A stretch of DNA of 64,000 bases from an uncultured Eubacteriales bacterium (GTDB lineage: Bacteria > Bacillota > Clostridia > Christensenellales > CAG-138), in NCBI GenBank assembly GCA_902787375.1, contig CADAGD010000007.1:3878-67877 (forward strand). The letters are read 5' to 3'. Shown here one piece after another: positions 3,700 through 64,000 of the stretch (the first letter of the stretch is position 1; each line of letters begins with the position of its first letter). Position numbers and translations under genes: made by a program. A model generated the notes under the pieces. The model saw only the letters and a list, made by a program, of their open reading frames with translations, was not told the origin of the DNA and searched no databases.

Positions 3700-4792
3700 T
3701 ATCGGAATAAAGGAGCTTGCCCTCCGCGCAAGGAGAACTCTGCACGATATGCCTGAGCTTGCCTTCGATGAAAAGAGGACGCTGAAATTCATTGCCGACT
3801 TTTTAAAGGAACACACCTCGCTCGAAATACATATCGAACGCGGATGGCTGTACGCCGTCCATCGTGAAGATGCAGACACCTCAACAGCGGTTCGCGCGGA
3901 TTTTGACGCCGTGCCTTATGGGGATAGCGCGAAGCATCTTTGCGGGCATGACGGACATACGGCATCGTTGCTTGCGCTTGCTTTGAAGCTTGAGGGAAAG
4001 CGTATTGGAAAGAATGTAATACTGCTCTTTCAGCCTGCCGAAGAAACCGGAGCGGGCGCACCCGTCTGCTGCGAGCTTTTTAAGCGTGAAAAAGTGAACG
4101 CCATAGTTGGCGCACACAACATACCCGGAAAGCCCATGGGACAGGTTTTGCTGAAGCGCGGAACATTTGCCTGTGCATCCTGCGGTATGGAGATAGTCAT
4201 GAATGGCAATCCAACTCACGCGGCATATCCCGAAAACGGCGTCAATCCGACAGCCGCCATAGCCTCTCTTGCGCTCAAAATACCCCATTACGCACAGGAG
4301 CTTTCAAGCATAAACGGGTGTATGACGCTTGCGACCGTGGTCGGAATGCAAACCGGCAAGCGTGCGTTCGGCGTCGCGGCATCCGACGGCAAGCTCTGGG
4401 TGACACTCCGCTCTGAGCATACCGAGCTGCTTGACAGCCTTCGCGCATATGCGTCTTCCGAAGCCGAGAAGCTTGCTTCGGAGCAGGGGCTTTCCTGCAC
4501 CGTTGACTTCTTCGACGTCTTCCCCGCCACCGTGAATGATGATTCACTTCTTGAGAATGCTGTCAGGACATTTTCGCATGACGGTATCGCGTGTTCAATG
4601 CTCGATGAGCCATTCCGCTGGTCGGAGGATTTCGGACATTACGGACATCATGTCCCCTCCCTCTTTATCGGCATCGGCTCAGGCGAGAATACGCCTCCCC
4701 TGCATACCGCCGATTATGAGTATCCCGACGAGCTTGTGGATGTGAGTTCGGACATATTCCTTAGAATTCTTGGTTCGGATTTTAGACTGTAA
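3692..4792 (+). CDS. M20 family amidohydrolase (N-acyl-amino acid amidohydrolase-like)
   Basis: HLCGHDGHTASLLALA and LLFQPAEETGAGA metal-site motifs; ATG overlaps the lplA stop by 8 nt. Confidence 0.8.
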   Translation: MSSIGIKELALRARRTLHDMPELAFDEKRTLKFIADFLKEHTSLEIHIERGWLYAVHREDADTSTAVRADFDAVPYGDSAKHLCGHDGHTASLLALALKLEGKRIGKNVILLFQPAEETGAGAPVCCELFKREKVNAIVGAHNIPGKPMGQVLLKRGTFACASCGMEIVMNGNPTHAAYPENGVNPTAAIASLALKIPHYAQELSSINGCMTLATVVGMQTGKRAFGVAASDGKLWVTLRSEHTELLDSLRAYASSEAEKLASEQGLSCTVDFFDVFPATVNDDSLLENAVRTFSHDGIACSMLDEPFRWSEDFGHYGHHVPSLFIGIGSGENTPPLHTADYEYPDELVDVSSDIFLRILGSDFRL

Positions 4793-5569: not shown

Positions 5570-6466
5570 TTAAAACAATCTGCAAAGTCCGAGCAATGCT
5601 GCTGCTATGAAGAACACTGCTGTCTTTAATAGCAGGGGTATAATCTTGGAATCAAGCAATCGTTTTTCGCAATGACAAATGTTCGATTTCGGACAGCCGA
5701 ACATACAGCGTTCACAGCAAATGCACTCGCCATTCATAACGGAATCATTCTCAAGCTTTATATTAACCGGGCAGTTGCGCTTACATATATCACAGCCCTT
5801 GATACAGTTCGCGGAATCCCTTTTGAGTATCCCAAATGGGAATACCGGAAGAAGTGTGAAAAAGGCTCCTATGGGACAAAGGAATCTGCAAAAGCCGCGT
5901 TCACAGAAAGCCATGAGCAGCAGCACCGTCACGAAGGCTATAATTCCTGCCGTATATCCTCCGAGTTTGAAGTTGAATGATGTTATCATTGAAAAAACAT
6001 CCAACGGGCTTGTACCCGTCAGGGCTGAATCGAACGAAAAAGCACAGGCGATGATTATAAAAGCCAGATTCAGAAGCTTAAGCTTTGAGAGCAGCACGGC
6101 GTATCTATCTGATATTGTCAGTTGTTTTTTCCTTTTAAACACCCGCTTTTGGACAATTCCCGAAAGCCAATAGACGAAATCACCAAGGCTTCCGAAAGCG
6201 CAGAAATACCCGCAGAACAGCCTTCCGAATACCATTGTAAAAACGGTAAAAAACAGTAAAACGGCAATAAATCCATCCGGCTGTATGACCGCACCCGCTG
6301 CGATGCTTCTGAATATCTGCTTTATTCCATTAAGGCACGCGGCAAAAGCTCCCGGCATGAGCAGGAAAAATAGCGTTCTTATTGCTGTACGAAGCATAAA
6401 ATGCAGCTTTTTTTGCTTCGCCATTGTTTGAGCCTTTGTAAGCACTTTTTCTTTTTTTCGCTCCAT
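5570..6466 (-). CDS. Membrane 4Fe-4S polyferredoxin (NapH/NosR-like)
   Basis: Multiple TM helices, two Cys-rich ferredoxin-type motifs ending in CP (CIKGCDICKRNCP, CICCERCMFGCP); start moved to ATG 6466 with GGAGG RBS next to the upstream stop. Confidence 0.8.
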   Translation of the reverse strand: MERKKEKVLTKAQTMAKQKKLHFMLRTAIRTLFFLLMPGAFAACLNGIKQIFRSIAAGAVIQPDGFIAVLLFFTVFTMVFGRLFCGYFCAFGSLGDFVYWLSGIVQKRVFKRKKQLTISDRYAVLLSKLKLLNLAFIIIACAFSFDSALTGTSPLDVFSMITSFNFKLGGYTAGIIAFVTVLLLMAFCERGFCRFLCPIGAFFTLLPVFPFGILKRDSANCIKGCDICKRNCPVNIKLENDSVMNGECICCERCMFGCPKSNICHCEKRLLDSKIIPLLLKTAVFFIAAALLGLCRLF

Positions 6467-6467
6467 A

Positions 6468-6944
6468 TCATTCCTCCGCGCCGCGAAGTGCAGCCTTGAC
6501 CGCCTCGATAATGCCCTTTGAACTGAATGTCGCACCCGAAACCGTATCTATATCCGTGCTTTGCGCCGTAATAATGCTTTCCAATACGGCCTCCGCCTGC
6601 GCCAGATACACCGAGTCCTCACCCGGTGCGTTCTCTATCAAGACTGTTGTGATGGTGTCATCCTTAACCGTGACTGTCACATTTATTTCTCCGCCGAAGC
6701 CCTGACCGCTTCCCGAATATGTGCCATCCTTGTACCGATGACCCGGCTCGGCGTCGCTTTCATTCGTATTATGCTCTGTACTCATGCGCTGAATCATCTC
6801 ATTATATGCCCTTATCTCCGCCGCTTTTTCGCTGTTTTCCTTCACAAGCCGCGCACGCGAGCTTGCGGCGAAACCGTAAATCAGGAGTGCTGCGGCAATA
6901 AGGCAAAAGCTTATCAGCTTCACAGTAAAAACAGGATGTTTCAT
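6468..6944 (-). CDS. FMN-binding domain protein (single domain, membrane anchored)
   Basis: MKHPVFTVKLISFCLIAAALLIY anchor; DIDTVSGATFSSKGIIEAVKAAL FMN_bind / flavinylation motif. Confidence 0.85.
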   Translation of the reverse strand: MKHPVFTVKLISFCLIAAALLIYGFAASSRARLVKENSEKAAEIRAYNEMIQRMSTEHNTNESDAEPGHRYKDGTYSGSGQGFGGEINVTVTVKDDTITTVLIENAPGEDSVYLAQAEAVLESIITAQSTDIDTVSGATFSSKGIIEAVKAALRGAEE

Positions 6945-8817
6945 ATTCAACCCTTTCCGGAATTATACTTCCATAAACAATCGGTTTCCCGTCAATATCG
7001 CCCGTCGTGCCGAAACCGGAGGCTGTATCATTATGCTCCGCATCGGCAAGCGCGGCTTCAGCCATTCTAATGAGCGCGTTTGAGCTGTATGTTGCGCTGC
7101 TGACAACGTCAAGCTCATCGGCACTCTGCTTTGTTATGAGCTGCTCCACTATGCCCATATATCTGACACCCTGCCGCACTCTGCCATTTACGGCATAATC
7201 AATATAGCGGTCATTGGCTTCGGGATCATCTGAGTTATCCTGTGTCTTTTCGACCGATACAGCGGTTATGCAATGATCCTCGATCGTGATTACGGTCTTG
7301 AGCATATAGTCGAACATATCATCGTCGCTGCATCGGGCAAATGCCTCATATTCCCCATCGGCGAACATGTGTCCCGGCTCTTGAGTCGGTTCCGCTGTTA
7401 CATCCGGCGTCGGCTGCGGTTCATCCGATGGAGTCGGAGATACATCCGGTATCAGAGTTTGTGTAGGGTTCTGTGTCGGTTCCGCCGTCGGAATCGGATC
7501 GGGTTCGGCTGAAGGTGACGGCGTTAAATCGGGGGTTCCGTTTTCTGCCAACGCATTATTTACCGCATTGACGATCGCCATTGAGCTGTATGTTGCGTGA
7601 CTGACGGCGTCTATCCCGTCAAGCGATTGTCTGGTTATTATTTGATCGGGAATGCCCTCATAGTACGTCTGACCAATGCTTCTGCCATCCACCGCGTTTT
7701 TAAGATAGGTATCATTTGCCTCCGGATCATCCGATCTGTCCTCAAGCTTTGTCACTATTATGCTGACTATTCTTCCATCGGTTATTTCAACCTCTGCCAT
7801 AACGGTATAGTCAAAGAAATTGTTATCGCTGCAAATCGCCGTACCGTCAAAACTGCCGTCACCTGTTATGGGAAGCACGGGATGATCTCCCACCGCTGCT
7901 GTTTCCGATGGTTTGGGGCTGTTGGTTGGATTTGCCGTCTGCGGCTCATCGTTCCCTCCTGCCTGCATCAGCGCACGTTTAACTGCATTTATTATTCCGT
8001 TTGATGAGTATGTTGCGGAAGATACGACATCGACATTGGGTGAATTTGCCTTTATTATCCTGCCTATGACCGCCATCGCTCTTGCAAAATATGAATCTGT
8101 TTCATGCTCGGCCGAAAGCACTCTTATGCTCTCTATCCTTCCGTTTTTGATAGTAACCGCGACGCGGATCTCTCCCTGGAAGCCGAATGCGGAGCCATAA
8201 TACACTCCGTCCTTATAGCCCTTTGGCTCATCGAACTTGATGACCTGCTTGCCGTTATGAGAATTCGGATCGGGTGGTTCCGACGTCTTGTCCGCTCCTT
8301 CATCTTTGGTTCCACTGATCGCATTTTTTATCGCGTTCAAAATACCGCGAGAGCTGAATGTTGCCCCTGAAACAACATCAACATTCGTGCTTTGCGCCTT
8401 CAGCACCCGGTCAATAACACCCAATGCCATTTCAAGGAATCTCGGCGTTTCCTTTTCCGCCGAAAGCAAATCCACCTTTTGCAGCCTTCCTCCCTCGACC
8501 GTTACCTCAACGGTTATTTCTCCTCCGAAGCCCTGTGCCGTACCGCGAAAAATGCCATCCACAAAATTCTCGTTTTTCCCCGCCTCTCCGAAACGCTCAT
8601 CTTCATCGGCAGGAGCCGTACAGAGCGGCGTTGGCTTCGGAGTCTCCAACTGCGGCTGTGCGGTTTGGTATTGCATGACGGCAAGCTTTTCCGGCAGTGC
8701 CTCCGGTTCAGGCAGATTGCAAATTCCCCTTATGGTTATGCCTCCGACAAGAAGCGCAGGCAACATAAGACATGCAATGCCTAACCGACTTTTTCGGTTT
8801 TTGACAATCGTTTCCAT
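6802..8817 (-). CDS. Multi-FMN-binding-domain (multi-flavinylated) extracytosolic protein, four domains
   Basis: N-terminal anchor; motifs VVSGATFSS, VVSSATYSS, AVSHATYSS, VVSSATYSS each followed by an (I/A)xxAxxxAL helix; Pro/Thr-rich linkers; start ATG 8817 or 8823; 3' end overlaps the next gene by about 140 nt. Confidence 0.85.
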   Translation of the reverse strand: METIVKNRKSRLGIACLMLPALLVGGITIRGICNLPEPEALPEKLAVMQYQTAQPQLETPKPTPLCTAPADEDERFGEAGKNENFVDGIFRGTAQGFGGEITVEVTVEGGRLQKVDLLSAEKETPRFLEMALGVIDRVLKAQSTNVDVVSGATFSSRGILNAIKNAISGTKDEGADKTSEPPDPNSHNGKQVIKFDEPKGYKDGVYYGSAFGFQGEIRVAVTIKNGRIESIRVLSAEHETDSYFARAMAVIGRIIKANSPNVDVVSSATYSSNGIINAVKRALMQAGGNDEPQTANPTNSPKPSETAAVGDHPVLPITGDGSFDGTAICSDNNFFDYTVMAEVEITDGRIVSIIVTKLEDRSDDPEANDTYLKNAVDGRSIGQTYYEGIPDQIITRQSLDGIDAVSHATYSSMAIVNAVNNALAENGTPDLTPSPSAEPDPIPTAEPTQNPTQTLIPDVSPTPSDEPQPTPDVTAEPTQEPGHMFADGEYEAFARCSDDDMFDYMLKTVITIEDHCITAVSVEKTQDNSDDPEANDRYIDYAVNGRVRQGVRYMGIVEQLITKQSADELDVVSSATYSSNALIRMAEAALADAEHNDTASGFGTTGDIDGKPIVYGSIIPERVEYETSCFYCEADKLLPYCRSTPDLRFRRKLACAACEGKQRKSGGDKGI

Positions 8818-8819
8818 AT

Positions 8820-9884
8820 TCATTCTCCGATTATGTTCACATGAAATGATGATGTGAAGCTTTGAGCGAGCGGTGCTGTAACGTATATATCGCCATCGTC
8901 CGTCATAAGTATCATGTCGAAGTCCTCACCGTATTCTTTCCAGTATTCAATGGAGCCTTCAAGTCCCATGACATAACATGCCGTTGAAAGCGCATCGGCA
9001 AGCATTCCGCTTTTGCTCACAATGGTCGTTGAGGAAAGCCCGCTTTCAGCAGGATAGCCTGTTTTGGGGTCGATTATATGGTGATAGCGTTTTGAGCTGC
9101 TTTCGTCGATAAAGAATCGCTCGTACGCCCCCGATGTTACAACCGCCCTGTCCTCGACCTCGACGACGCCAAGATAAACGCTCGAATCGGGATACATTGG
9201 ATGAGCTATACCGCAGCGAAACAGATTTCCATCCGTTTTTCTTTTATAGCATTGAACATTTCCGCCAAGCGAAACACAGCCTGAAACCATGCCGTAGCTA
9301 TCGAACACCTCCATCAACCTGTCCGATGTAAAACCCTTTGCTATTCCTCCCAGATCTATGCCATGTGCGTCGCCAAGCTCAAGACTGTCCTGTGTGAATA
9401 TCGGCTTTTCAAAGCCCACATGCTCAAGCTCCGATTCAAGTTCTTCCTTTTGCGGAACCCTGTACTCCGAATCGGTAAACCCCCAAAGCCGCATTATCGG
9501 ATATATGCTGATATCGAAAGCTCCATTCGTGGCACGTGATATTTCAAGCGCCTTTTCGATTATGTGCGCAGTATCCTCGCTTATCTTCGCTTTGCCAAAC
9601 GTGTTCACAGCGTTTATATCGCTTTCCTCTCCCGATACCGAAAGCAGAGCATCAAGCCTCTGTATCTCCGCTATTGCGGCTTCAAGTGCCTCCTCGCTCC
9701 TCTGTCCGCTGCATGTTATTTTCATGTAAGTATCCATTGCGAATACCTCACCGCTTGCAGTGTGTATTTGTTCCGCATTATTTGATGCGGTTCCTGCTGC
9801 GCAAGCCGCTGAAAGCATTGCAAGCAGGCTTATCAATATCGCCGAAATTACTGTTTTCATGCGTATTTTTTGAGTTTCTTGCAT
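8820..9884 (-). CDS. apbE: ApbE-family FAD:protein FMN transferase lipoprotein
   Basis: Lipobox LLAMLSAAC; AFDISIYPIMRLWGF and IDLGGIAKGF motifs; AGGAGG RBS 6 nt upstream of ATG 9884. Confidence 0.85.
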   Translation of the reverse strand: MQETQKIRMKTVISAILISLLAMLSAACAAGTASNNAEQIHTASGEVFAMDTYMKITCSGQRSEEALEAAIAEIQRLDALLSVSGEESDINAVNTFGKAKISEDTAHIIEKALEISRATNGAFDISIYPIMRLWGFTDSEYRVPQKEELESELEHVGFEKPIFTQDSLELGDAHGIDLGGIAKGFTSDRLMEVFDSYGMVSGCVSLGGNVQCYKRKTDGNLFRCGIAHPMYPDSSVYLGVVEVEDRAVVTSGAYERFFIDESSSKRYHHIIDPKTGYPAESGLSSTTIVSKSGMLADALSTACYVMGLEGSIEYWKEYGEDFDMILMTDDGDIYVTAPLAQSFTSSFHVNIIGE

Positions 9885-10363
9885 AGTATTCCTCCTATAA
9901 AACCTATCAGCGCACCGCTTGCCATACCGCTAATCCACAATACTGTCATATACCATGCTATTGCGGAAGTACTCATTATGAGCATGGCTGCAAGTATTTG
10001 CCCCAAATTATGGGCAACTCCTCCTACGGTACTGACAGCGGTTATCGAGAACCTGTTGGTTTTCTTCAAAAGTATCATAACGGCTCCGCTGAGAAGTCCT
10101 CCCGACATGCTGTAAACAAAGCTCAGGCCGTTTCCGAAGAGTATCGAGACTATCAATATTCTTACAATGTTAATAAAAACTGCACTTCTGCTGTCCTTGA
10201 GATACAGCGTTATCAGTACGACCGTATTCGTAAGTCCAAGCTTCATACCCGGCACGGCAAAAAAAGGAGGAAACTGCGCCTCAACATAGCTCAATATGAG
10301 CGCAAGCGCAATCAACATGCTGTAGACGGGTACGCTTTTTATTATTCTGTTTCTGTTATTCAT
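9857..10363 (-). CDS. Gx transporter family membrane protein (heptaprenyl diphosphate synthase component I-like)
   Basis: About five TM helices, PGMKLGLTNTVVLITLY segment; usual partner of NusG-II proteins as I recall the family. Confidence 0.65.
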   Translation of the reverse strand: MNNRNRIIKSVPVYSMLIALALILSYVEAQFPPFFAVPGMKLGLTNTVVLITLYLKDSRSAVFINIVRILIVSILFGNGLSFVYSMSGGLLSGAVMILLKKTNRFSITAVSTVGGVAHNLGQILAAMLIMSTSAIAWYMTVLWISGMASGALIGFIGGILCKKLKKYA

Positions 10364-10744
10364 CTATTGTCCGACTTCAATATCCACGGATGCATCGTCC
10401 GTCGCATCGCCTACTATCTCAATTACCACCTTATTGGGCAGGCATATAACGGAAGCTCCTGTATTGCGTATATGCCCCATATTAACACAAAGACCATCGG
10501 GACATGATGCGCTTTCTATCCATGCCTCTCCGTCCCTTACTATCAAAATGTTTTTTCCATTGTTAATTCCGTTTATCTCATATTCAATATTGTTTGAAAG
10601 GGGAAATGCAGTAATCAGCTCTCCGTCAACCTTTACTTCCACAAAGCCGCCCGGCTTTGCGGTAAACAGATTCCATATGATTACAGCAAAAAAAACCATG
10701 AGCAATGCCCCGAAAAGAATGAGGTCATTTTTATACTTTTTCAT
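10364..10744 (-). CDS. NusG domain II-containing protein
   Basis: TM anchor then VKVDGELI...ASCPDGLCVNMGHIRNTGASVICLPNKVVIEI; start ambiguous (ATG 10744 or 10798). Confidence 0.7.
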   Translation of the reverse strand: MKKYKNDLILFGALLMVFFAVIIWNLFTAKPGGFVEVKVDGELITAFPLSNNIEYEINGINNGKNILIVRDGEAWIESASCPDGLCVNMGHIRNTGASVICLPNKVVIEIVGDATDDASVDIEVGQ

Positions 10745-10820
10745 TGTCCTAAACAAGTTCACCGGTATGCGCGATGAAAGCTGTGCTGCATCACGCATAC
10801 CGATGGTAAAGGTTCAGAGC

Positions 10821-12551
10821 TTATGTGGGGAATGCTTCAAGCGAACCCATCGAGTATCGAAGTATCAGCAATGCATCGGTCGTATTTATGTTTCCGCTGC
10901 CGTTTACATCGCCTGCCGCTATCTGTGTATCGGTAAATTCGTCAAGTCCCATGGCAAACCTCAGCGCAAGTATAGCATCAAGTACGCTGACCTCTCCGTC
11001 GCCGTCAATGTCTCCAAGCATGGGAGGTATATAAACCGCTGTTGTCTTGCGGATTATATAGTTATCGCAAAGGAATTCAACCGTGACAGTCTTCTCCTCG
11101 TCAAGCGTCGAAACAAGCGCAATACTTCCATTTTCAACCGGAACATATATCGGCTGTACCCTTCCGTTTTCGTCAACATAGGTTTCGGTGAGATATGTCC
11201 TCTGTTTGCCAACGGAATAGTAGACTATCGCGGTCACGTTCTCGGCGTCTTCGGGAATGCCTGAGACACCTACACTTGCCGCATTGATGAACTCAGCCTC
11301 CACCTGACCTTTATAAACAACCGGAATGGTTTCGTCTGCTGTGTAATCATAAACGAAGTAATTACCCTGCTTGTCATTGCAGTAATAACGGATGGAGGTG
11401 ATGGTTTTCCCGTCAAGAACATCCACGTTATCGGCATTCCATGCTATGGAGTTATATGCCCAGATATTGTAAAGGTGGATCATACCCGCAGCATTTCCAT
11501 CCTCCGCGGTTATTATCATGGCGTTCACCTGCTTGCCTTGTAACTCGTCTGCGTTGATTATATCAAACTGAACATCACCCCAGTGGGTACTGTAGCTCAC
11601 ACCCATCTCAAGCTTTTCAAGCTCAACATGCTCATTCTCAACGGCGTTGAACTCTATTTCACCGTTGTTCAGAACCGCGCTCATATAATAAGCGGGTTCA
11701 TCATCAAGAATATAATACGAATACGAGGGAGCCTCCATCATCGAATCCCTTCCGACAAGCTCAACCGCGTTTGTGTTTCCATGAGCTGCCGAGGCAACTA
11801 TAACGGTACGATCGTCCGTTATCTCTATACCGCCAAGTGCTTCCGCAGAGTTGAGTACATCTGCGTCCTCTACATACACAGGCCATATAACTCCCTCAAG
11901 GTGAGCTCCATTTTCCTTGCCTACTGCAACTATGTTTCCTTCTTCATCATAATCCGCTGTCTGCGCGGAATGATATGATCCGCCTGCCTTATTGACATTG
12001 CCTACCTTGCTCGTTGCGGAGGACATGGCGTCAATATCGAATACAGATACACCCTCCGCATTATAGAACTTGTCATATGGAATGTTCATAAGAACATAGG
12101 TGCCGGGCTCCTCATTGTCAACTTTTGACAACGCATCGTTAACTGCTTCTATGAGAGCAACTGATGTACGGGTCGCTCCGGAGACGACGTCTATATCCTC
12201 GGTTGACTGTTTTTCAACTATCTGAGAAAGCGGGCTCGGATAGAAAACGCCTCCGCGCGTTCTCCCGTTTACGGCATAATTCCAGTATGGATCGTTATCC
12301 TCGTCATAGCTCTCTGAGTCATGCGCGGCGGTTATGGATTCTATTATGCTGCCATTCATCACCACATCGACAGTAAGACCATAGTCCGCAAAATCGCCCT
12401 CTGTATCGAGAACGGTCGCTTCACCGGTATAAGCCGCATCTCTCATTGTTGCATCAGCGGCAGCCACAGCTCCGGCACCGGAAAATGCACTGAATACCAT
12501 AAGAAAAGCGATTAAACCGGCACAAATCCTTTTAGGGTTACAATTCTTCAT
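10821..12551 (-). CDS. Secreted FMN-binding domain protein with C-terminal type I dockerin
   Basis: Signal peptide MKNCNPKRICAGLIAFLMVFSAFSGAGAVAA; DIDVVSGATRTSVALIEAVNDAL; C-terminal GDIDGDGEVSVLDAILALRFAMG...AGDVNGSGNINTTDALLILRYSMG duplicated Ca-binding dockerin repeats; start at ATG 12551 with AGGAAGG RBS. Confidence 0.85.
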   Translation of the reverse strand: MKNCNPKRICAGLIAFLMVFSAFSGAGAVAAADATMRDAAYTGEATVLDTEGDFADYGLTVDVVMNGSIIESITAAHDSESYDEDNDPYWNYAVNGRTRGGVFYPSPLSQIVEKQSTEDIDVVSGATRTSVALIEAVNDALSKVDNEEPGTYVLMNIPYDKFYNAEGVSVFDIDAMSSATSKVGNVNKAGGSYHSAQTADYDEEGNIVAVGKENGAHLEGVIWPVYVEDADVLNSAEALGGIEITDDRTVIVASAAHGNTNAVELVGRDSMMEAPSYSYYILDDEPAYYMSAVLNNGEIEFNAVENEHVELEKLEMGVSYSTHWGDVQFDIINADELQGKQVNAMIITAEDGNAAGMIHLYNIWAYNSIAWNADNVDVLDGKTITSIRYYCNDKQGNYFVYDYTADETIPVVYKGQVEAEFINAASVGVSGIPEDAENVTAIVYYSVGKQRTYLTETYVDENGRVQPIYVPVENGSIALVSTLDEEKTVTVEFLCDNYIIRKTTAVYIPPMLGDIDGDGEVSVLDAILALRFAMGLDEFTDTQIAAGDVNGSGNINTTDALLILRYSMGSLEAFPT

Positions 12552-48255: not shown

Positions 48256-49461
48256 TTATTCATCATCGGTTTTATTTTTATAATACTCATGCACGAGGCT
48301 TTTAAGTCCAAGCGATCTCATATAATCATAGCGCACATTGAACCGCGCCTTTGTGCTTTTGCCGCTGACAAGGCGGCGCACGCAATCCTGCGCATAGCGG
48401 TCAATGGCATTCAAGCTCTTTGTCGTATTTATGACGGGAAAGAACCAGTAAGTCCACGTCAGTTCATTGTCCGACACGCTCTCGAAAAGCTTGCGGTTGA
48501 ATATCCTTATGAACGCCTTTGCCGCCCTCTCCCCCTCTATGCCGTTCCTGTCCCGCCATCTTGCAAGGGCGCGCATCTTGCGGCGCATCTTATGCTTGAG
48601 CTTATCCAGCGACGCCGGAGCAATATCTATAACTCCGTGTCTGTATGAGAATCCCAAAAATACAAAGCCCTCATCAGGGGAGGAAAAACGCTCCTTATCG
48701 GGATTCAGCTCAAGTCCGTTCTCCTTCAAAAAGCTTCGCACCGTTTCAGCGTGTCCCTGCGCCCCCTCACGGGTTTTCGCAAAGAGTATTATATCATCCG
48801 AATAGCGGCAATAAGGCACTCCAAGCTTCTCAAAATGCCTGTCAAGCTCCGTCAGGAACAGATTCGCGTAGAACGATGCGAGGGGCGTTCCCGCCATAAT
48901 ACCCTTTCTTTCCTTGATGCGCTCACCGTTTTCAAGCACATACGGCTCCTCAAGAAGCCTTTTCAAAAAGGCATAAAGCTCCTCATCATCCCCCATCGCG
49001 TTCTTTAAAAGCGGCAGAAGCCTTTCAATATCTATCGAGTTGAAATAATTGCTTATATCCGCCTTATAGGAGTACATCTCCCCCACCCCTCTGACGCGCA
49101 GGAGCGACATTATGGCGTCCTTTGCCGTTCTTCCCGGACGGAACGAAAACAGGTTATCGGCAAACAACCCGTCATTTCTTCTCAGCATAATGTATGTAAG
49201 CAGCTTCAGGACCCGGTTATGGGCATCCGGGTATGTGTACACAACACGCTTTTTCTGCGTGGATTGCTTGCTTATAATCGACTTTTGCGGCAGAGGGAAA
49301 TCGCAGCCTAACGCAATGCTCTCGCATACGGGAATGTATCCCCTGCTGTCTATGAACCGACGCAGCTCCCTTTTCAGTCTGTCGGGACAGACAAGCCCCG
49401 ACTTATACTCATAAAACCGTTCCCACACGCTTACATCCGACAGCTCGTCCAAAATGCTCAT
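48256..49461 (-). CDS. Stand-alone reverse transcriptase (RNA-directed DNA polymerase), 401 aa
   Basis: RT motifs KKRVVYTYPDAHNRVLK, FSFRPGRTAKDA, YKADISNYFNSID, GIMAGTPLASFYANLFL, RYSDDIILF (YSDD at 48793-48804), FVFLGFSY; start at ATG 49461 (MSILDEL). Confidence 0.85.
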   Translation of the reverse strand: MSILDELSDVSVWERFYEYKSGLVCPDRLKRELRRFIDSRGYIPVCESIALGCDFPLPQKSIISKQSTQKKRVVYTYPDAHNRVLKLLTYIMLRRNDGLFADNLFSFRPGRTAKDAIMSLLRVRGVGEMYSYKADISNYFNSIDIERLLPLLKNAMGDDEELYAFLKRLLEEPYVLENGERIKERKGIMAGTPLASFYANLFLTELDRHFEKLGVPYCRYSDDIILFAKTREGAQGHAETVRSFLKENGLELNPDKERFSSPDEGFVFLGFSYRHGVIDIAPASLDKLKHKMRRKMRALARWRDRNGIEGERAAKAFIRIFNRKLFESVSDNELTWTYWFFPVINTTKSLNAIDRYAQDCVRRLVSGKSTKARFNVRYDYMRSLGLKSLVHEYYKNKTDDE

Positions 49462-49499
49462 AAAACGCCTTTCAATCGGGATATTATAATAAAAACCGA

Positions 49500-49691
49500 C
49501 CCATATCCGAAAGCTGTGCCTTCGGACACGGATCGTCAACAAACAGGGGCGAAAGAAATTAAATTCAGGAAGTTCCTGAATGTACCGGGCCGTACACGGA
49601 CACGCTGCCTGCAAAGCCGCCGCTTTAAAGCGTCAAAAGTCCGTGCCTTGCCCCCCGCAGGCGCATGGCGTTCCGCCCCCGTCGTTTGCCC
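49500..49691 (-). ncRNA. Candidate structured RNA upstream of the RT (hypothetical)
   Basis: GC-rich intergenic segment with several stems (ggcg-gaa-cgcc, ccgt-gt-acgg, attcaggaa/ttcctgaat, tccgaa-N8-ttcgga); no homology evidence. Confidence 0.25.
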
Positions 49692-51015: not shown

Positions 51016-51465
51016 ATGAAGATAAAGCTTGTCCTGAGCGATGAGAACCACGATATTGTCGCCGACTTTCTCACAAAGCACGGCATAGAGATAGACGATT
51101 CGTCCGAATTTGTGCTTATAGAACAGAACAGGTATCCTCAGCACTTGACCGTGAAGGACGGGCGCGGCGAACGTGCACTCATAAGTGTGGACGACATAGT
51201 CCTCATAGAAACATTCGGACACACGGTTTCCGTCGTCACAGCCGACGGCGAATACACATCGCAGTTAAGGCTTTATCAGCTTGAGCTGACTCTCGACCCG
51301 GCGCGTTTCCTTCGCATCAGCAACTCCGTTATCATTCAGAGGAACAAGATAAAGAGGATACTGCCGTCATTGTCAATGAGATTCGTTCTTGAGATGTGTA
51401 ATTCCCGGAGGGTGGACGTCACCCGAAGCTACTATTTGAAATTCAAAGAATATTTTAAAATCTGA
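51016..51465 (+). CDS. LytTR family DNA-binding protein
   Basis: ISVDDIVLIETFGHTVSVVTADGEYTSQLRLYQLE...FLRISNSVIIQRNKIKRI. Confidence 0.8.
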   Translation: MKIKLVLSDENHDIVADFLTKHGIEIDDSSEFVLIEQNRYPQHLTVKDGRGERALISVDDIVLIETFGHTVSVVTADGEYTSQLRLYQLELTLDPARFLRISNSVIIQRNKIKRILPSLSMRFVLEMCNSRRVDVTRSYYLKFKEYFKI

Positions 51466-51477
51466 CAGGAGGTTATT

Positions 51478-52503
51478 ATGTCATCTACAGTTATATCAAC
51501 ATGGGGTATTATAATCGTACTGATCGCCATAATCACCGTAGCCGTTGTGTACATTGCATCCTATAAATCACGGCTTAAACGGGCGGTCAATAACGAGAAT
51601 ATGGGCAATTCCATGCCTTCTCCGGCAGGCTTCTTCGCTGTGTTCGGAGTCTTCGTTATAGCCGGACTGATAATCTGGCTGATAATTAAAATGGGCAGCA
51701 TTACCGACAGCATAGCAGCATTGCAAAACAATCTCAATTACAACCTTGCAGGCATCAGCAATCAGCTTGACAATCTCAATTCCGAACCCGAATATAAGAA
51801 TTTTTCGTCAATAGTCTATGATTCCGATTTAGATTTGAAAAGCGGTTCAGGCAATCTCAGGATAGAAGCCATACCCACGTCGGTCTCGTTGGATGCCAAA
51901 ATCGCCGTGAATTTAGAAGGCTCAATATATGAGCTTAAAAACCATGGCGGCATATACTCCTGCGACATTGAGCTTTCACTTGAAAAACCTGAGCTTGTTG
52001 AATGTCTTAATGAAGGTTGTGATGCCTTAATAACAGTCACTCAAAACGGTGTAATGAGTACGGATACCTTTACTGTTTGGCTTGTAAAACAACTGCCTGT
52101 TTTAAGCTTTAAGGACTTCCGTGAACCAACGATCAATTTTAATGATTCGGAAAAGGAGCTTGAAAAAAGCACGTTTACATTCTCTGAGTATCCAACCTTA
52201 GAGATTTCCACAGAAGGTGTTGAACTGCCTGATTTCTCAGCAGAGATAAATGTCTTTAGAATGGTCAATGAGGAATCTTCCATAATCGAGACAATTCCCG
52301 TTGAGCTGACCTATGAAGGAGATGACATCTATACTCTTACTCCACACTTTGACAGCACATATCCCGCGCTTGATAATGTGAGTTTCTTCCTCTATCTAAG
52401 GCTTGAAAATGGACTGAGCTTATGCTTTGGAGATTTCTTAAACGTTTCATTGAACAACGTACAGTTCAACAATTACCTCGAAGCCGATCTCCTATTTGAA
52501 TAA
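51478..52503 (+). CDS. Membrane-anchored hypothetical protein
   Basis: Two N-terminal TM helices, large extracytoplasmic domain; GGAGG RBS. Confidence 0.5.
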   Translation: MSSTVISTWGIIIVLIAIITVAVVYIASYKSRLKRAVNNENMGNSMPSPAGFFAVFGVFVIAGLIIWLIIKMGSITDSIAALQNNLNYNLAGISNQLDNLNSEPEYKNFSSIVYDSDLDLKSGSGNLRIEAIPTSVSLDAKIAVNLEGSIYELKNHGGIYSCDIELSLEKPELVECLNEGCDALITVTQNGVMSTDTFTVWLVKQLPVLSFKDFREPTINFNDSEKELEKSTFTFSEYPTLEISTEGVELPDFSAEINVFRMVNEESSIIETIPVELTYEGDDIYTLTPHFDSTYPALDNVSFFLYLRLENGLSLCFGDFLNVSLNNVQFNNYLEADLLFE

Positions 52504-59694: not shown

Positions 59695-60579
59695 ATGAAA
59701 AGGATTACAGCGATTGTTTTGACATTGATCTTCGCACTCATGGCGGCGGTTCCCGCATTTGCCATGGAGGAGGGCGAACGCCGTCTGGTTCTCGGAGCCG
59801 ATCTGACCGACGAGCAGAAGGCTGAGGCGATACAGTTCTTCGGCATATCCGAGGAAACTCCCCTCATAACCGTCACGAACAGGGACGAGCGTCAGTACTT
59901 CGAGGGCAAGCTTCCCGATGAAAAGCTCGGTCATGTCGCGCTTTCCAGCATCTACATTGTAGCCAAGGCAAAGGGTACGGGGCTTTCCATCAAGACCCAC
60001 AATATCAACTATGTAACATCCGACATGTATGAGAATGCCCTCATATCCGCCGGCATAACCGACGCCGATATAAGCATCTGGGCACCCCGCAACATCAGCG
60101 GAACCGCCGCTCTTACCGGCATTTACAAGGCATATGAGGACATGACGGGACGCGCTCTCGACTCCTATGCCAAAGACCTCGGTATCGAGGAGCTTATCGC
60201 AACAGGCAAGCTTGCCGAGTATGTCGGCTCCAAGGACGCCCTTGCGATAATAAACGACGTCAAGAAGATTCTCGATGAAACTCGCACCATGAACGACGCC
60301 GACGTCATGGCGAAGATTCACAGCATCGCCGCTGAGTACGGCGTGACCCTCACCGACGATCAGGCAAACCAGATATTCACCCTTGCCCGTATGTTTGAGG
60401 GACTCTCCGCCGAGGAGATACAGCAGCGTCTTGTCAATATGGCAAACGCCGCTCAGAAAGCGCAGTCCTTCGGTGAGGTCGTGCAGGGCATTATACAGTC
60501 CATAGGCGACTTCATTCAGATAGTCGGCGACTTCTTCGCCAACGTCTGGAACAACTGGTTCGGCGGCGGAAATAATTAA
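59695..60579 (+). CDS. DUF1002-like secreted protein
   Basis: Signal peptide MKRITAIVLTLIFALMAAVPAFA; LGADLTDEQKAEAIQFFGI...; family call from memory. Confidence 0.6.
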   Translation: MKRITAIVLTLIFALMAAVPAFAMEEGERRLVLGADLTDEQKAEAIQFFGISEETPLITVTNRDERQYFEGKLPDEKLGHVALSSIYIVAKAKGTGLSIKTHNINYVTSDMYENALISAGITDADISIWAPRNISGTAALTGIYKAYEDMTGRALDSYAKDLGIEELIATGKLAEYVGSKDALAIINDVKKILDETRTMNDADVMAKIHSIAAEYGVTLTDDQANQIFTLARMFEGLSAEEIQQRLVNMANAAQKAQSFGEVVQGIIQSIGDFIQIVGDFFANVWNNWFGGGNN

Positions 60580-62165
60580 TTTGCTAACCTTTTAAGTATG
60601 CGGCTCGTCCAAAGGAAAACCCAAGGGACGAGCCGCGTTTTTATTGAATTTTGCTCGTTATGCGATTTTTTGCGCAGCTCTGCCCTCCATCCGAGCTTGG
60701 GCTTTTTCAAAAGCGCTCTGATTATTGAAAGCTTCTGCTTTTCACCCCCTGAAAGGTTGGTTGAGCCCTCATTTATAACGGTATCAATACCATCGGGGAG
60801 AAAGCTTAAAAAATCGTCCAAATCAAGCATATGAGCAAGGCGTCTGAACTCCTTTTCATCCGGCTCCCTGCTCTCGTCAAGGGTGAGATTGAATCTCAAT
60901 GTTTCCTCTATCAGCATGGGCTCCTGTTCGGATATGCCGACCAATTCCCTTCTAAGCCGCCGCATGTCAATACTCTCCATAGGTATGCCGTTATACAATA
61001 CCTTGCCGCTGTACTCGTCGATGAACATTCCGAGAAGAAGGTTTATATACGTGCTTTTGCCCGCGCCGTTTTCACCGACAAAGGCATACAGTTTTCCCTT
61101 TTCAAGCGTAACGCTGCGGTTCTCAAATATGGGTTCATCATCATACCCGAACGAAACGCCATTGCATTCAATGCTCTCAATATCGGAGAGTGTGATGCTG
61201 CCGTTGGTCTGCTCAGGTATCTCAAATATTTTTTCGAGTCGATCGCAGGATACCTTGTTGCTCTGGATGCTCTTTCCGAGTGAGAAAAAGTACTGCGTGG
61301 CTCCGAGTGACATTCCGAAATAGCTCATAACCATTGTCAACTCGCCTATGGTCATCTTGTCGGCTATAACAGCCATGCCGCCAAGCACAAACACGACAAC
61401 ATTTGCCGCCGTTCTTATAACAACATCCGAGCCGCTGAAACCGTATTCCGCCTTTTGACTTTTGAGACACTTGCTCAAAAGCGTCTTAACGCTCCTGTCA
61501 AGCCTCTTGATATATCCGTCGGAAATGCCCTGCGCCTTGATGAAATTTACATTGTTAAGCTGAGCGTCAAGCTTTGAAAAATACTCCGCCTGCTCCTCCA
61601 TGAACTCATAATCCGCCTTGTATACGGGTTCCTTAAACACGTTATAAAGCCCGAAATAGGCGAGGTCTATAACGATCATCGCCACCGCGAGCCAAGGCTC
61701 GAACATGTAGAGAAGCACAAGGGGCAATACCAATGTTATGACATTGGAGATTATGTTTTGAAGCACGGTTATGCAGAATATAATCAGCATGTTGGAGTCG
61801 TTGTTTATCTGCTGATTCAGAAAAGCCGTGTTCTTGCCCTGCATGAATCTGAATGTGATATTCTGCACATGGTGTATGGCGTCGGCATTCAGCTCATAGC
61901 CGCCGCCCACCTGTACCCTTATATAAAGCCTTTCGCAGACATAGCCCAATACGAACTCGAATGCCGCTATGAGTACCAAAGCCAATACATATATCTTTAT
62001 GAATCCGGCATCCTTTGTCTGCGTCAGCTCGTCGATGAAGCTGCCCGAAATGTAGGGAGCTATCACCGTTGTGACATTCGCAAGTATGTACAGCCCTATC
62101 AGAATGGCTATTCGCCCGCTGTGTCTTCGCAAATAGGGCGCGCATAGTTTAAAAATACTTTTCAT
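60576..62165 (-). CDS. ABC transporter permease/ATPase fusion, apparently 3'-truncated (Walker B, D-loop, H-loop missing)
   Basis: Six-TM domain, Walker A GENGAGKST, signature LSGGEKQK; after ...IIRALLKKPKL the frame reads unrelated residues into the terminator; start at ATG 62165 (MKSIFKL). Confidence 0.75.
   Translation of the reverse strand: MKSIFKLCAPYLRRHSGRIAILIGLYILANVTTVIAPYISGSFIDELTQTKDAGFIKIYVLALVLIAAFEFVLGYVCERLYIRVQVGGGYELNADAIHHVQNITFRFMQGKNTAFLNQQINNDSNMLIIFCITVLQNIISNVITLVLPLVLLYMFEPWLAVAMIVIDLAYFGLYNVFKEPVYKADYEFMEEQAEYFSKLDAQLNNVNFIKAQGISDGYIKRLDRSVKTLLSKCLKSQKAEYGFSGSDVVIRTAANVVVFVLGGMAVIADKMTIGELTMVMSYFGMSLGATQYFFSLGKSIQSNKVSCDRLEKIFEIPEQTNGSITLSDIESIECNGVSFGYDDEPIFENRSVTLEKGKLYAFVGENGAGKSTYINLLLGMFIDEYSGKVLYNGIPMESIDMRRLRRELVGISEQEPMLIEETLRFNLTLDESREPDEKEFRRLAHMLDLDDFLSFLPDGIDTVINEGSTNLSGGEKQKLSIIRALLKKPKLGWRAELRKKSHNEQNSIKTRLVPWVFLWTSRILKRLAN
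60600..60643. terminator. Hairpin terminator between convergent genes
   Basis: gcggctcgtcc-N16-gacgagccgc, then TTTTT. Confidence 0.7.
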
Positions 62166-62189
62166 TCTTACCCTTCGATTATAATTAAA

Positions 62190-62219
62190 GCCGTGCCTGA
62201 GCCATAGCTCAGGCACAGC
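62190..62219 (-). terminator. Stem-loop between precursor genes and the ABC gene (terminator/attenuator candidate)
   Basis: Minus-sense ggctgtgcctgagc-tatg-gctcaggcacggc, then tttaattataat. Confidence 0.5.
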
Positions 62220-62317
62220 CTTAGTTAAACATTAGTCTTAGCTGCTAACAGCACGGTTCAGCTCAGTAGAACAGCATATCTGTTTTCATTTGCTTATAAA
62301 GTTCATTCTTAAATTGA

Positions 62318-62455
62318 TTAACAAGCTTGTATAGGATGAATTTTTTCATACCTATCCAAAGCACATGGTCTAAAGCCTCTACCTTTCATCTTTGCGGTAC
62401 ATGAGGTTGAAGCCTTGTTAACATCTTTCTTTGTTTTTAAAATCAAAAATTTCAT
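62318..62455 (-). CDS. Candidate RiPP precursor peptide 2 (45 aa)
   Basis: Not in ORF track. GGAAGGAAAATATT-ATG; MKFLILKTKKDVNKASTSCTAKMKGRGFRPCALDRYEKIHPIQAC*. Confidence 0.65.
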   Translation of the reverse strand: MKFLILKTKKDVNKASTSCTAKMKGRGFRPCALDRYEKIHPIQAC

Positions 62456-62534
62456 AATATTTTCCTTCCTGAAAAGCTATAAAAAGCGTTTGTTTTGTAA
62501 ATATGTTTTATAATTAATACTTGCTATTTTCAGA

Positions 62535-62666
62535 TTAACACGGACGTGCAAAACGAGGATATCTATCTATCCTACACGGCCTATCTTCCCCTCCTTTCAT
62601 TTTCGCAGCACATATAGATACAGGTTTATTAGTACCATTTTTTCTTTTTAAAATCAGAAATTTCAT
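62535..62666 (-). CDS. Candidate RiPP precursor peptide 1 (43 aa)
   Basis: Not in ORF track. AAAGGAGGATAAT-ATG; MKFLILKRKNGTNKPVSICAAKMKGGEDRPCRIDRYPRFARPC*. Confidence 0.65.
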   Translation of the reverse strand: MKFLILKRKNGTNKPVSICAAKMKGGEDRPCRIDRYPRFARPC

Positions 62667-62783
62667 ATTATCCTCCTTTCGAATAAAATATGCCGTTATA
62701 TAAAGCAGAACCACATGCTTTCACATCGTAATGAAAACTCATTCGTTAAATCTTGCAAATGAATGCAAAACGCCATCTATGTC

Positions 62784-64000
62784 CTAATAGCTTAATGTAC
62801 TCTTCTTTTCATCAACTTGTTTTTCCAATATAGCAGGTATGATGTCCATAAATGCTGCCAAGCCATGTTTCATCGCAGTACAACGTATATCAGGATTTTG
62901 TTGTCTGAGATATGGACATCCACCCATGCAGACGGGAAGAAATTTGCAATCCCTGCATTGCTCATCCTCGGTTGGATCATACAGCATATAATCAAATGTA
63001 CGTTTATCCAATCGTAAATCGTCTGTTATTTGTCCAATACTTCTACCCTTTATTCCTATTTCATTCCAGCATCTGTAAATCAATCCATCCGCCCCTATTA
63101 CAAAACAATTTTCGGTATCAGCACCACAATAGCTTCCTATCTGATTTGGAATCCAGCATGTTATATCAAAACCGTTTCTTGTTATAAAATCAAATTCGTG
63201 TTTTGAAAACTCATTGGTATGTAAACACGAGTTGTCGTTATAGGTTCCGTTCGCATTCTCGACCATGGCAAGATACGGAGCCGTAACATCTTCAAGTCCT
63301 TTTTCCTTCAAAATACTTATAACATTATCAACACGATCAATGTTATGTCTGTCGGCATTTATTCTAATCTGAACAGGATACTGTATTTTATCCTTTACTG
63401 CAACGAGGTTATCAATTATCCTATCAAAAGTTGGAAGACCGCCTTTCAAGCAACGGCGCTTATCGTGATCCTCTGCAGCACCGTCCAAAGTGATCTGTAT
63501 ACTAAGAATCCTGAGTTCATTGAGCTTATCCATTATTTTAGGAGTGAGCAAAAAGCCGTTCGTCACAATGCTTGCAATGTATTCAACATTATTCTCCTCA
63601 CATAACTCCATAAGTTTACGACTGAGCTCCTCAACAATGTCCATAGCAAGCAACGGCTCTCCGCCATACCATGTTACGTCTAAGCTTCTTTTAAACTGAA
63701 TCCTGTTCTTAGCAAAATCAACTATTGCGTCCTTAACCTCATCGTTCATAACAACAGGCTTTATACTGTCTTTCTCATAGCAATAGACGCAACGAAAATT
63801 ACAGTCGGATGTTGGAGCAATGGTCAAAACCAAATCAGCATCGGAAAAACGAGATGACAACATACAATAGCGCAATGAGGCAAGCTCATCAAAGTCGCTG
63901 TCCACAACATATCCGCCCAAGCGCAGATTGGAAAGAAGCTCCTCATCCTCTATGGGTTTCCCATCGGATTCAAAATCGCAATACATTTTATACTTGGCGT
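62784..64000 (-). CDS. Radical SAM / SPASM-domain peptide maturase-like enzyme (5' end may lie beyond the window)
   Basis: CNFRCVYCY radical SAM cluster motif, GGEPLL, C-terminal CRDCKFLPVCMGGCPY SPASM/twitch Cys cluster; the frame stays open upstream of ATG 63986 to the edge. Confidence 0.85.
   Translation of the reverse strand, partial: AKYKMYCDFESDGKPIEDEELLSNLRLGGYVVDSDFDELASLRYCMLSSRFSDADLVLTIAPTSDCNFRCVYCYEKDSIKPVVMNDEVKDAIVDFAKNRIQFKRSLDVTWYGGEPLLAMDIVEELSRKLMELCEENNVEYIASIVTNGFLLTPKIMDKLNELRILSIQITLDGAAEDHDKRRCLKGGLPTFDRIIDNLVAVKDKIQYPVQIRINADRHNIDRVDNVISILKEKGLEDVTAPYLAMVENANGTYNDNSCLHTNEFSKHEFDFITRNGFDITCWIPNQIGSYCGADTENCFVIGADGLIYRCWNEIGIKGRSIGQITDDLRLDKRTFDYMLYDPTEDEQCRDCKFLPVCMGGCPYLRQQNPDIRCTAMKHGLAAFMDIIPAILEKQVDEKKSTLSY

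Follow-up and report, generated by a model that had tools for sequence, protein, structure and literature searches.

The question raised by the far end of the 64,000-nt stretch analysed here (contig CADAGD010000007.1 of an uncultured Eubacteriales bacterium; the whole stretch is called the window throughout) is whether two small cysteine-containing open reading frames (ORFs), named pepA and pepB in this work, are the substrates of the radical S-adenosylmethionine (rSAM) enzyme encoded beside them, and what that enzyme would do to them. A first-pass annotation, made from the sequence, had taken the pair for precursors in a new family of RiPPs, peptides made on the ribosome and modified after translation. 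Our analysis points to a compact RiPP operon of maturase, pepA, pepB and ATP-binding cassette (ABC) exporter, in which the 43–45-residue products would be the precursors, their leaders would dock on a domain of the maturase resembling a RiPP recognition element (RRE), Cys thioether rings would be formed, the product would leave through the ABC protein, and the cluster as a whole would act as a recombining allelic island. We give this complete explanation a probability of roughly 0.7. Strains of a single gut/rumen Clostridia species differ at this point: the cluster is swapped in some, replaced in others and lacking in still others. This combination of allelic swapping with presence and absence is the most unusual aspect of the locus, the cluster type itself being ordinary for Clostridia.

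Two tandem small genes next to an rSAM gene

The whole cluster is read from the minus strand, in the order maturase, 117-nt spacer, pepA, 79-nt spacer, pepB, 152-nt spacer and ABC gene, with the peptide ORFs lying head to tail between the maturase stop and the ABC start (62165). Its features are as follows.

62784..>64000, minus strand: putative RRE-rSAM-SPASM peptide maturase, of which the C-terminal 404 of 444 codons are inside the window
62672..62676, minus strand: Shine-Dalgarno site of pepA, GGAGG, 5 nt before the ATG (read from the sequence)
62535..62666, minus strand: pepA, predicted 43-residue precursor MKFLILKRKNGTNKPVSICAAKMKGGEDRPCRIDRYPRFARPC (ORF read from the sequence)
62464..62469, minus strand: Shine-Dalgarno site of pepB, GGAAGG (read from the sequence)
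62318..62455, minus strand: pepB, predicted 45-residue precursor MKFLILKTKKDVNKASTSCTAKMKGRGFRPCALDRYEKIHPIQAC (ORF read from the sequence)
62186..62223, minus strand: perfect stem-loop of 17 bp in the spacer that separates pepB from the ABC gene, fold energy -30.8 kcal/mol
60576..62165, minus strand: predicted ABC exporter, transmembrane domain plus ATPase (Pfam ABC_membrane and ABC_tran)
60692..60693, minus strand: junction of a 145-bp deletion in the ABC gene, relative to the sister alleles L003 and L005

The two ORFs, each with its own Shine-Dalgarno site and placed just downstream of the rSAM gene, have exactly the sequences given in the first-pass annotation, and the alignment of pepA with pepB bore out the blocks it had listed as shared: the MKFLILK N-terminus, N13-K14, C19, AKMKG, RPC, DRY and the C-terminal Cys. 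Twenty-three residues are common to both peptides (53% identity), and at 10 of these 23 the two genes use different synonymous codons, which argues for selection acting on the protein and not on the DNA. An even spacing of the three Cys had been claimed for both peptides; it is exact in pepA (positions 19, 31 and 43) but does not hold in pepB (19, 31 and 45). In a six-frame scan of the whole 64 kb, pepA and pepB alone displayed an MKFL-type N-terminus.

Five other assemblies carry both peptide ORFs with their Shine-Dalgarno sites intact and unchanged, and the same pepA ORF is carried by the independent assemblies L001, L002, L098, L104 and L107. The description of the ORFs as unannotated needs correction: both exact proteins had already been called as genes and stand, unnamed, in a public protein collection (NCBI and ENA sources).

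The cluster is compositionally foreign, with a low GC content of 36–41% for the maturase and the peptides against about 53% in the surroundings. Scans for consensus promoters and terminators detected no signal exceeding shuffled expectation, and the hairpin after pepB was not called by the terminator scan because it has no clear U-run. Allele L003 has this same hairpin unaltered, whereas L005 lacks it; it is possibly an attenuator or a transcript-stabilising element, and may increase the ratio of peptide to transporter transcript.

Peptide-maturase pairing in homologous loci

Searches with the peptides themselves returned nothing beyond the query. A pepA/pepB profile found self-matches only, both in a word-indexed collection of 5.8 billion proteins and when HMMER was run exhaustively over 1.84 billion representatives, a failure that we ascribe to hypervariable cores joined to a conserved leader of 6–7 residues. 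Family models were equally silent: 10 MKFL peptides scanned with NCBIfam and Pfam drew no genuine match (one hit of pepB to Pfam LAS2, at 17.8 bits with a cut-off of 27, was treated as noise), as the first-pass annotation had anticipated in finding no known precursor pattern. The Clo7bot precursor model TIGR04333 matched neither pepA nor pepB at E <= 1, nor any of 9 sister MKFL peptides at E <= 10, while control peptides scored 40.8–61.6 bits (cut-off 31) and those of C. botulinum ATCC 25763 scored 49–62.

With cores this variable and so short a leader, family members were sought via the maturase, which has hundreds of homologues. Neighbourhoods were retrieved for ten loci (L003–L008, L088–L097) with maturases 58–84% identical to that of the window, and all ten carry one to four small ORFs on the same strand beside the enzyme, starting M-K-F-L-[V/I/L/A/S]-[L/I]; the check proposed with the original claim, whether homologous loci hold conserved small ORFs, thus came out in its favour. 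In these ORFs the leader is followed by a hypervariable, Cys-rich core. A scan without Cys filter collected 24 MKFL ORFs, all preceded by a Shine-Dalgarno site and none on the opposite strand; 23 have at least two Cys, and the remaining one is interrupted by an ambiguous base. No core lacks Cys, which accounts for 11% of residues after position 7.

The association extends to the wider clade. Among 80 GTDB-representative loci with maturases 32–61% identical to the window's, partner ORFs start with MEYLVL, MEFLVLG, MKFIVEP or MKFIVKP, and an M-K-[FY]-[LI]-[IV] N-terminus is common to the window peptides, the Clo7bot peptides and other relatives. In 91 wider-clade loci, the density of leader-type Cys ORFs within 1.5 kb of the maturase is 0.31 per kb on the strand of the enzyme and 0.004 per kb on the other, a strand-specific enrichment of roughly 80-fold. 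Because the close homologous loci all carry MKFL ORFs and the maturase strand of the wider clade is enriched in leader-type ones, the pairing of peptides and enzyme is well supported, and pepA and pepB are very probably precursors of the adjacent maturase. The coupling of precursor-type genes to an rSAM/SPASM enzyme and an ABC exporter, proposed from the window, is supported.

On this sequence evidence, peptides with MKFLxL leaders and their maturase would constitute an unnamed branch of the rSAM/SPASM Cys-peptide systems. The claim of a new RiPP family therefore stands at the subfamily level, where no model matches the peptides, but not above it, as the maturase falls within the catalogued Clo7bot/TIGR04463/CefB group.

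Maturases P0007–P0021 (60–67% identity) were considered as further alleles of the same site and rejected: their N-termini differ, as do their neighbours where checked, and we regard them as orthologues or paralogues in other taxa. In two related taxa (L088 and L090) the locus is doubled, with paralogous maturases at 2787–4127 and 6185–7534 of L088 and at 6001–7396 and 7885–9228 of L090, each with its own MKFL peptide and both sharing one ABC exporter, so that maturase-peptide pairs are duplicated as modules. In the same taxa, genes of the TraB/PrgY family (PF01963) follow closely downstream of MKFL-type rSAM clusters (L088 8372–9499, L090 11399–12436); they might provide a protease or pheromone-shutdown function tied to the peptides, and none is present at the window locus.

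Architecture of the maturase

The start codon of the maturase lies about 120 nt past the window end. The full gene is present on L001 and L002, two metagenome contigs that match the window at 100% identity across 3308 bp; in L001 the ORF of 444 residues runs from 8338 to 9672. L107 has the full-length sequence too, at 7780–9114 on its minus strand. The radical-SAM motif CX3CX2C is present as CNFRCVYC, its three cysteines (C106, C110 and C113) being invariant in sets of 24 and 46 homologues, and Pfam Radical_SAM scores 73.7 bits. A SPASM motif with two auxiliary Fe-S clusters was sought as CX9-15GX4C ... CX2CX5CX3C ... C and found as C331-x13-G345-x4-C350, C388-x2-C391-x5-C397-x3-C401 and C413; these cysteines, together with C298, are likewise invariant in both homologue sets. 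The Pfam scan reported no SPASM match for this protein, and the assignment accordingly rests on the motif and on the fold match described below.

Hidden Markov models (HMMs) of NCBIfam placed the enzyme near several families and inside none. The best match is the Clo7bot maturase TIGR04334 (319.8 bits, cut-off 600), followed by TIGR04463 (272.1, cut-off 525), CefB NF038107 (235.9, cut-off 600), PapB NF047865 (136, cut-off 340), the SCIFF maturase TIGR03974 (89.8, cut-off 425) and the anaerobic sulfatase maturase (anSME) TIGR03942 (84.1, cut-off 349). The three leading models all describe maturases of Cys-rich peptides. Positive controls for TIGR04334 passed, with 852.6 bits for C. botulinum ATCC 25763 (L073) and 654.9 bits for L066.

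An AlphaFold2 model of an allele 84% identical to the window maturase (pLDDT 91.6, pTM 0.87) shows an N-terminal domain of beta-sheet plus helices ahead of the rSAM barrel, with strands at 4–6, 10–14, 24–29 and 34–39 and helices at 40–52, 59–68 and 78–90. The best Foldseek match of this model in the PDB, over the full length, is CteB (5WHY/5WGG, E = 2.5e-21), with an alignment of 448 columns that takes in the N-terminal domain of CteB; further neighbours are anSME, TigE, SuiB and the epimerase EpeE. CteB is also the top PDB match by sequence (E = 3e-16). From the model and the fold alignment, the N-terminal domain of the maturase is predicted to be RRE-like. CteB is taken in PMC10288494 as the prototype structure for a ranthisynthase that forms thioethers.

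The first-pass annotation had named membership of the sulfatase maturases as the outcome that would speak against a peptide substrate. This was ruled out: the anSME score is low, the N-terminal domain is predicted to be RRE-like, and no sulfatase is found among the genes examined to either side of the cluster. Two other lines were set aside. The positions described as 'catalytic site proximity' (PMC10288494) were mapped by hand through the CteB alignment onto Y114, Y151, V185, T210, W351 and N352, where CteB has F, F, T, S, H and Q; the comparison did not separate sactipeptide from ranthipeptide chemistry and was not used. A 66-residue ORF overlapping the maturase start (L001:8151–8351), annotated by gene callers just past the window end and probably spurious, was rejected as a third precursor or discrete RRE because it has no MKFL leader and lies inside the likely promoter region.

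Exchange of the cluster between strains

Three alleles occupying the same site were compared (window/L001, L003 and L005). The gene order is L31, NAD synthase and His phosphatase, then the bracketed maturase, peptides and ABC gene, then a convergent DUF1002 gene, an RluA-type pseudouridine synthase and a PHP-domain gene, with FtsH also among the neighbours on the DUF1002 side. The flanks and the ABC gene are 96–100% identical between alleles in nearly every 200-nt interval. The first ~150 nt of the maturase gene are 90–99% identical between the three alleles and the remainder 63–84%, and the peptide arrays cannot be aligned outside their leaders, which stay MKFL[ILV]L. At the protein level, maturase residues 1–60 are 100% identical in the three alleles, in that of L005 even though the proportion of synonymous differences (pS) is 0.29 there, and later 20-residue segments range from 30 to 95%. 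The peptides number two in the window allele and three or four in L003, L005 and the related L106, and each of the three alleles compared was found in two or more independent assemblies.

In the part of the maturase gene past codon 64, synonymous sites are saturated (pS 0.66–0.78, Nei-Gojobori here and below) with a dN/dS of about 0.08, and dS of the flanking genes is 0.02–0.09. The alleles are therefore ancient lineages under purifying selection and not products of recent rapid evolution. The pattern indicates that they are exchanged by homologous recombination, with breakpoints in the 5' end of the maturase gene and either within the ABC gene or just upstream of it.

The exact DUF1002 protein of the window led to ten more contigs from this species, which revealed four states of the slot between the DUF1002 and His phosphatase genes.

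State (a), window allele: L098, L104 and L107; pepA and pepB the same as in the window
State (b), L003-like variant: L106; three peptides, one of them new
State (c), empty: L099 (6942–7044) and L100; the DUF1002 terminator directly meets the end of the His phosphatase gene
State (d), unrelated cassette: L101–L103 and L105, about 7038–11147; ABC-ATPase/FtsX fusion, lipoprotein and a protein of no family

The unrelated cassette encodes a fused ABC-ATPase/FtsX protein of 844 residues, a putative lipoprotein of 189 residues and a protein of 252–284 residues without family match; the ATPase part resembles lactococcin-972-type exporters (178 bits, under the cut-off of 255). Given the empty and replaced slots, the RiPP cluster is an accessory, replaceable island at a fixed chromosomal site.

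The allele data also allow a stronger interpretation, a specificity-group system in which the species keeps several ancient, mutually exclusive cassettes whose catalytic/SPASM part has co-diverged with the peptides, the leader/RRE pair and the exporter being frozen. We hold this to be rather unlikely and offer it tentatively. If true, strains would differ in the 'dialect' of their cross-linked peptide, be it a pheromone or a narrow-spectrum toxin, and the window allele would have a ring topology absent from characterised sactipeptides and ranthipeptides (three Cys 12 apart, a charge of +8/+9, AKMKG and C-x-x-DRY). The alleles of one species, together with the empty and alternative slots, offer a natural experiment on the co-specialisation of rSAM maturases and their substrates, and on whether peptides of this kind serve competition or signalling among strains in the gut of ruminants.

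Proposed path from precursor to product

In the mechanism that we propose, MKFLILK plus about 10 residues up to the first Cys would form a short leader, which would dock as a beta-strand on the RRE-like N-terminal domain of the maturase. The radical-SAM core would then take a hydrogen atom from a core residue, and a Cys sulfur would be joined to that carbon with the help of the two auxiliary Fe-S clusters of the SPASM domain. Each peptide could acquire up to three thioether rings in this way, and C31-x-x-D34, which is conserved, provides one plausible Cys-to-Asp pair. The peptidase-less ABC transporter would export the product, with the short leader either retained or trimmed by an unlinked protease, and the peptide might serve antagonism or signalling. 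The coupling of leader and RRE finds support in the alleles, where maturase residues 1–60 and the peptide leaders are frozen and the catalytic part and the cores vary.

Thioether cross-linking of pepA and pepB is proposed from the enzyme fold, the family matches and the conservation of Cys, and a number of observations weigh against it or against the wider scheme. The maturase falls under the trusted cut-off of every named family, and among its fold neighbours TigE and SuiB are SPASM enzymes of the same fold with non-thioether chemistry. The window peptides are outliers of their own family: three Cys spaced by 12 residues is the sparsest arrangement (3–7 is typical) and their positive charge (+8/+9) is the highest, from which it follows that the window allele may be processed differently. 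The locus has no leader peptidase, immunity gene or receptor, and the ABC gene of the window is damaged, as taken up in the next section.

These points leave room for the same architecture with another modification, namely a C-C or C-O cross-link, epimerisation, cyclopropanation or Cys oxidation, with the cysteines acting as Fe-S ligands, disulfides or metal binders. Such a reading can call on the sub-threshold family scores and on the company of SuiB (a Lys-Trp cross-link), the epimerase EpeE and TigE, which is a cyclopropylglycine synthase (PMC10878394). The AKMKG and DRY blocks, conserved in the window allele equally with Cys, would suit it too. Against it, Cys is the sole residue class that no core of the family lacks, Cys-rich substrates define each of the three nearest HMM families, and the best fold match, CteB, is a thioether synthase. 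We consider another chemistry unlikely, and Cys thioether formation specifically to be somewhat probable.

State of the exporter

The ABC protein starts directly with its transmembrane domain. Pfam detected only ABC_membrane and ABC_tran in it, and its alignments cover positions 149–635 of 710 in TIGR03796 and 148–630 of 708 in TIGR01193, in agreement with the earlier statement that no C39 peptidase domain is present. In the window, the 145-bp deletion shifts the frame after '...LLKKPKL', and the coding for Walker B, D-loop and H-loop is lost.

Several assemblies speak to the origin of this deletion. L001 and L002 match the window to the junction, then run on with intact LLVLDEPTSALD and end 99 nt later, and a run of N occupies the position of these two contig ends in scaffold L098. 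An intact ABC gene of 550 residues is present in L003, L005, L104 and L107, of which L104 and L107 carry the same pepA and pepB as the window. As the gene is intact in these two, L001 and L002 end inside the deleted stretch and the N-run of L098 falls at that point, an assembly artefact at a fragile spot is more likely than a real loss-of-function variant.

A decaying remnant, with two low-Cys peptides, a broken exporter and no product released, would explain the frameshift from Walker B to the H-loop, the smaller number of peptides than in L003, L005 and L106, and the evident dispensability of a cluster that empty-slot strains lack. It fits poorly, however, with a maturase ORF that is intact to the window end (444 residues in L001) and keeps all its Fe-S cysteines, with peptide ORFs and Shine-Dalgarno sites preserved unchanged across assemblies, and with an intact ABC gene behind the same peptides in L104 and L107; the signs of an assembly-fragile site further reduce the case for a real deletion. 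We find decay in this genome improbable.

The weakest reading, which would make pepA and pepB chance ORFs or mere non-coding spacer and give the rSAM enzyme a sulfatase, a cofactor or some other substrate, could appeal to the empty whole-sequence searches (5.8 billion and 1.84 billion proteins) and family-model scans of the peptides, but it is strongly disfavoured by the synonymous-substitution pattern, which favours coding, the Shine-Dalgarno site on both ORFs, the leader kept in all close loci with its strand-specific enrichment, the absence of a sulfatase among the neighbouring genes examined and an anSME score of 84 bits against 349.

Other features of the window

Two further regions of the window may be of interest. 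On the minus strand, within 48256..49666, an ORF of 452 residues has a reverse-transcriptase domain (RVT_1, 90 bits), and the Rfam RNA motif RT-5 lies directly ahead of it at 49551..49666, scoring 77.6 bits where 45.7 is the gathering score. This stand-alone reverse transcriptase with its structured RNA is possibly retron-like or defence-related. On the plus strand, at 51016..52503, a LytTR DNA-binding protein of 149 residues is followed by an ORF of 341 residues without Pfam match, which runs into a low-GC patch (39% at 52000–52499). The region may represent a further accessory module, and nothing was found to connect it with the RiPP locus.

Relation to known systems

The literature searched contained no study of the MKFL branch, nor of Clo7bot, TIGR04334, TIGR04463 or OhkG; matches for 'FlmE' and 'CefB' were unrelated acronyms, and the main text of RiPP reviews and of the Mitchell-lab rSAM compendium does not mention an MKFL family. 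The present locus adds to the rSAM/SPASM RiPPs a coherent, unnamed precursor family, an MKFLxL leader with a hypervariable Cys core, that has no HMM of its own. Rule-based mining that depends on SCIFF or other named models probably overlooks clusters of this type; in the Hungate1000 survey, for instance, ranthipeptides were identified by TIGR03973 (PMC13289728).

Among the closest known systems is Clo7bot (TIGR04333 with TIGR04334; L073 of C. botulinum ATCC 25763), a system defined bioinformatically only, as far as the literature searched goes. Both have tandem short Cys-rich ORFs adjoining an enzyme of about 445 residues with a predicted RRE-like domain ahead of rSAM and SPASM domains (two ORFs in the window, up to four in its sister alleles), and Clo7bot peptides have a very short leader, M-K/R-[YF]-[IL]-[IVK]. 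They differ in that the maturases are about 36% identical, the window enzyme scoring 320 bits against a cut-off of 600, the peptides do not match TIGR04333, the leader is MKFL[IV]L[NK] instead of MKYI(K/I)xP, and Clo7bot cores have CxxC or Cx3C spacing where the window has 12 residues. The maturases of TIGR04463 and CefB ('Cys-every-fifth') are similar to the window enzyme in length, architecture and Cys-rich peptide partners; their scores, in contrast, are far under the cut-offs, their partner-peptide models do not match the window peptides, and the CefB spacing is 5 against 12.

From CteB, which with CteA makes the SCIFF-type ranthipeptide thermocellin (5WHY/5WGG), we have borrowed the proposed mechanism. 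The order of RRE, rSAM and SPASM domains, with the RRE of the window enzyme predicted, is the same in both enzymes, but the identity is only 19%. SCIFF precursors are single-copy and strongly conserved, with six C-terminal Cys, whereas those of the window family are multi-copy and hypervariable, and the SCIFF peptide model TIGR03973 does not match the window peptides. The PapB/freyrasin-type ranthipeptides (NF047865) share the rSAM/SPASM enzyme class and, with the conserved C31/D34, a C-x-x-D arrangement in the peptide; PapB forms Cys-Xn-Asp thioethers and tolerates n = 0–6 (PMC9413430). Here the differences are that the PapB profile covers only residues 58–363 of the window maturase, with no counterpart of its N-terminal domain, and that the window peptides have no repeated CX3D array.

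In its population structure, the locus is best compared with systems of another kind. Staphylococcal agr and pneumococcal blp/com are allelic specificity-group peptide loci, and the resemblance would be one of evolutionary analogy and not of homology: the enzyme class is different, and the window locus has no receptor kinase or regulator. The analogy lies in a hypervariable segment of processing enzyme and peptide bracketed by near-identical sequence within one species, and in alleles far older than their genomic background.

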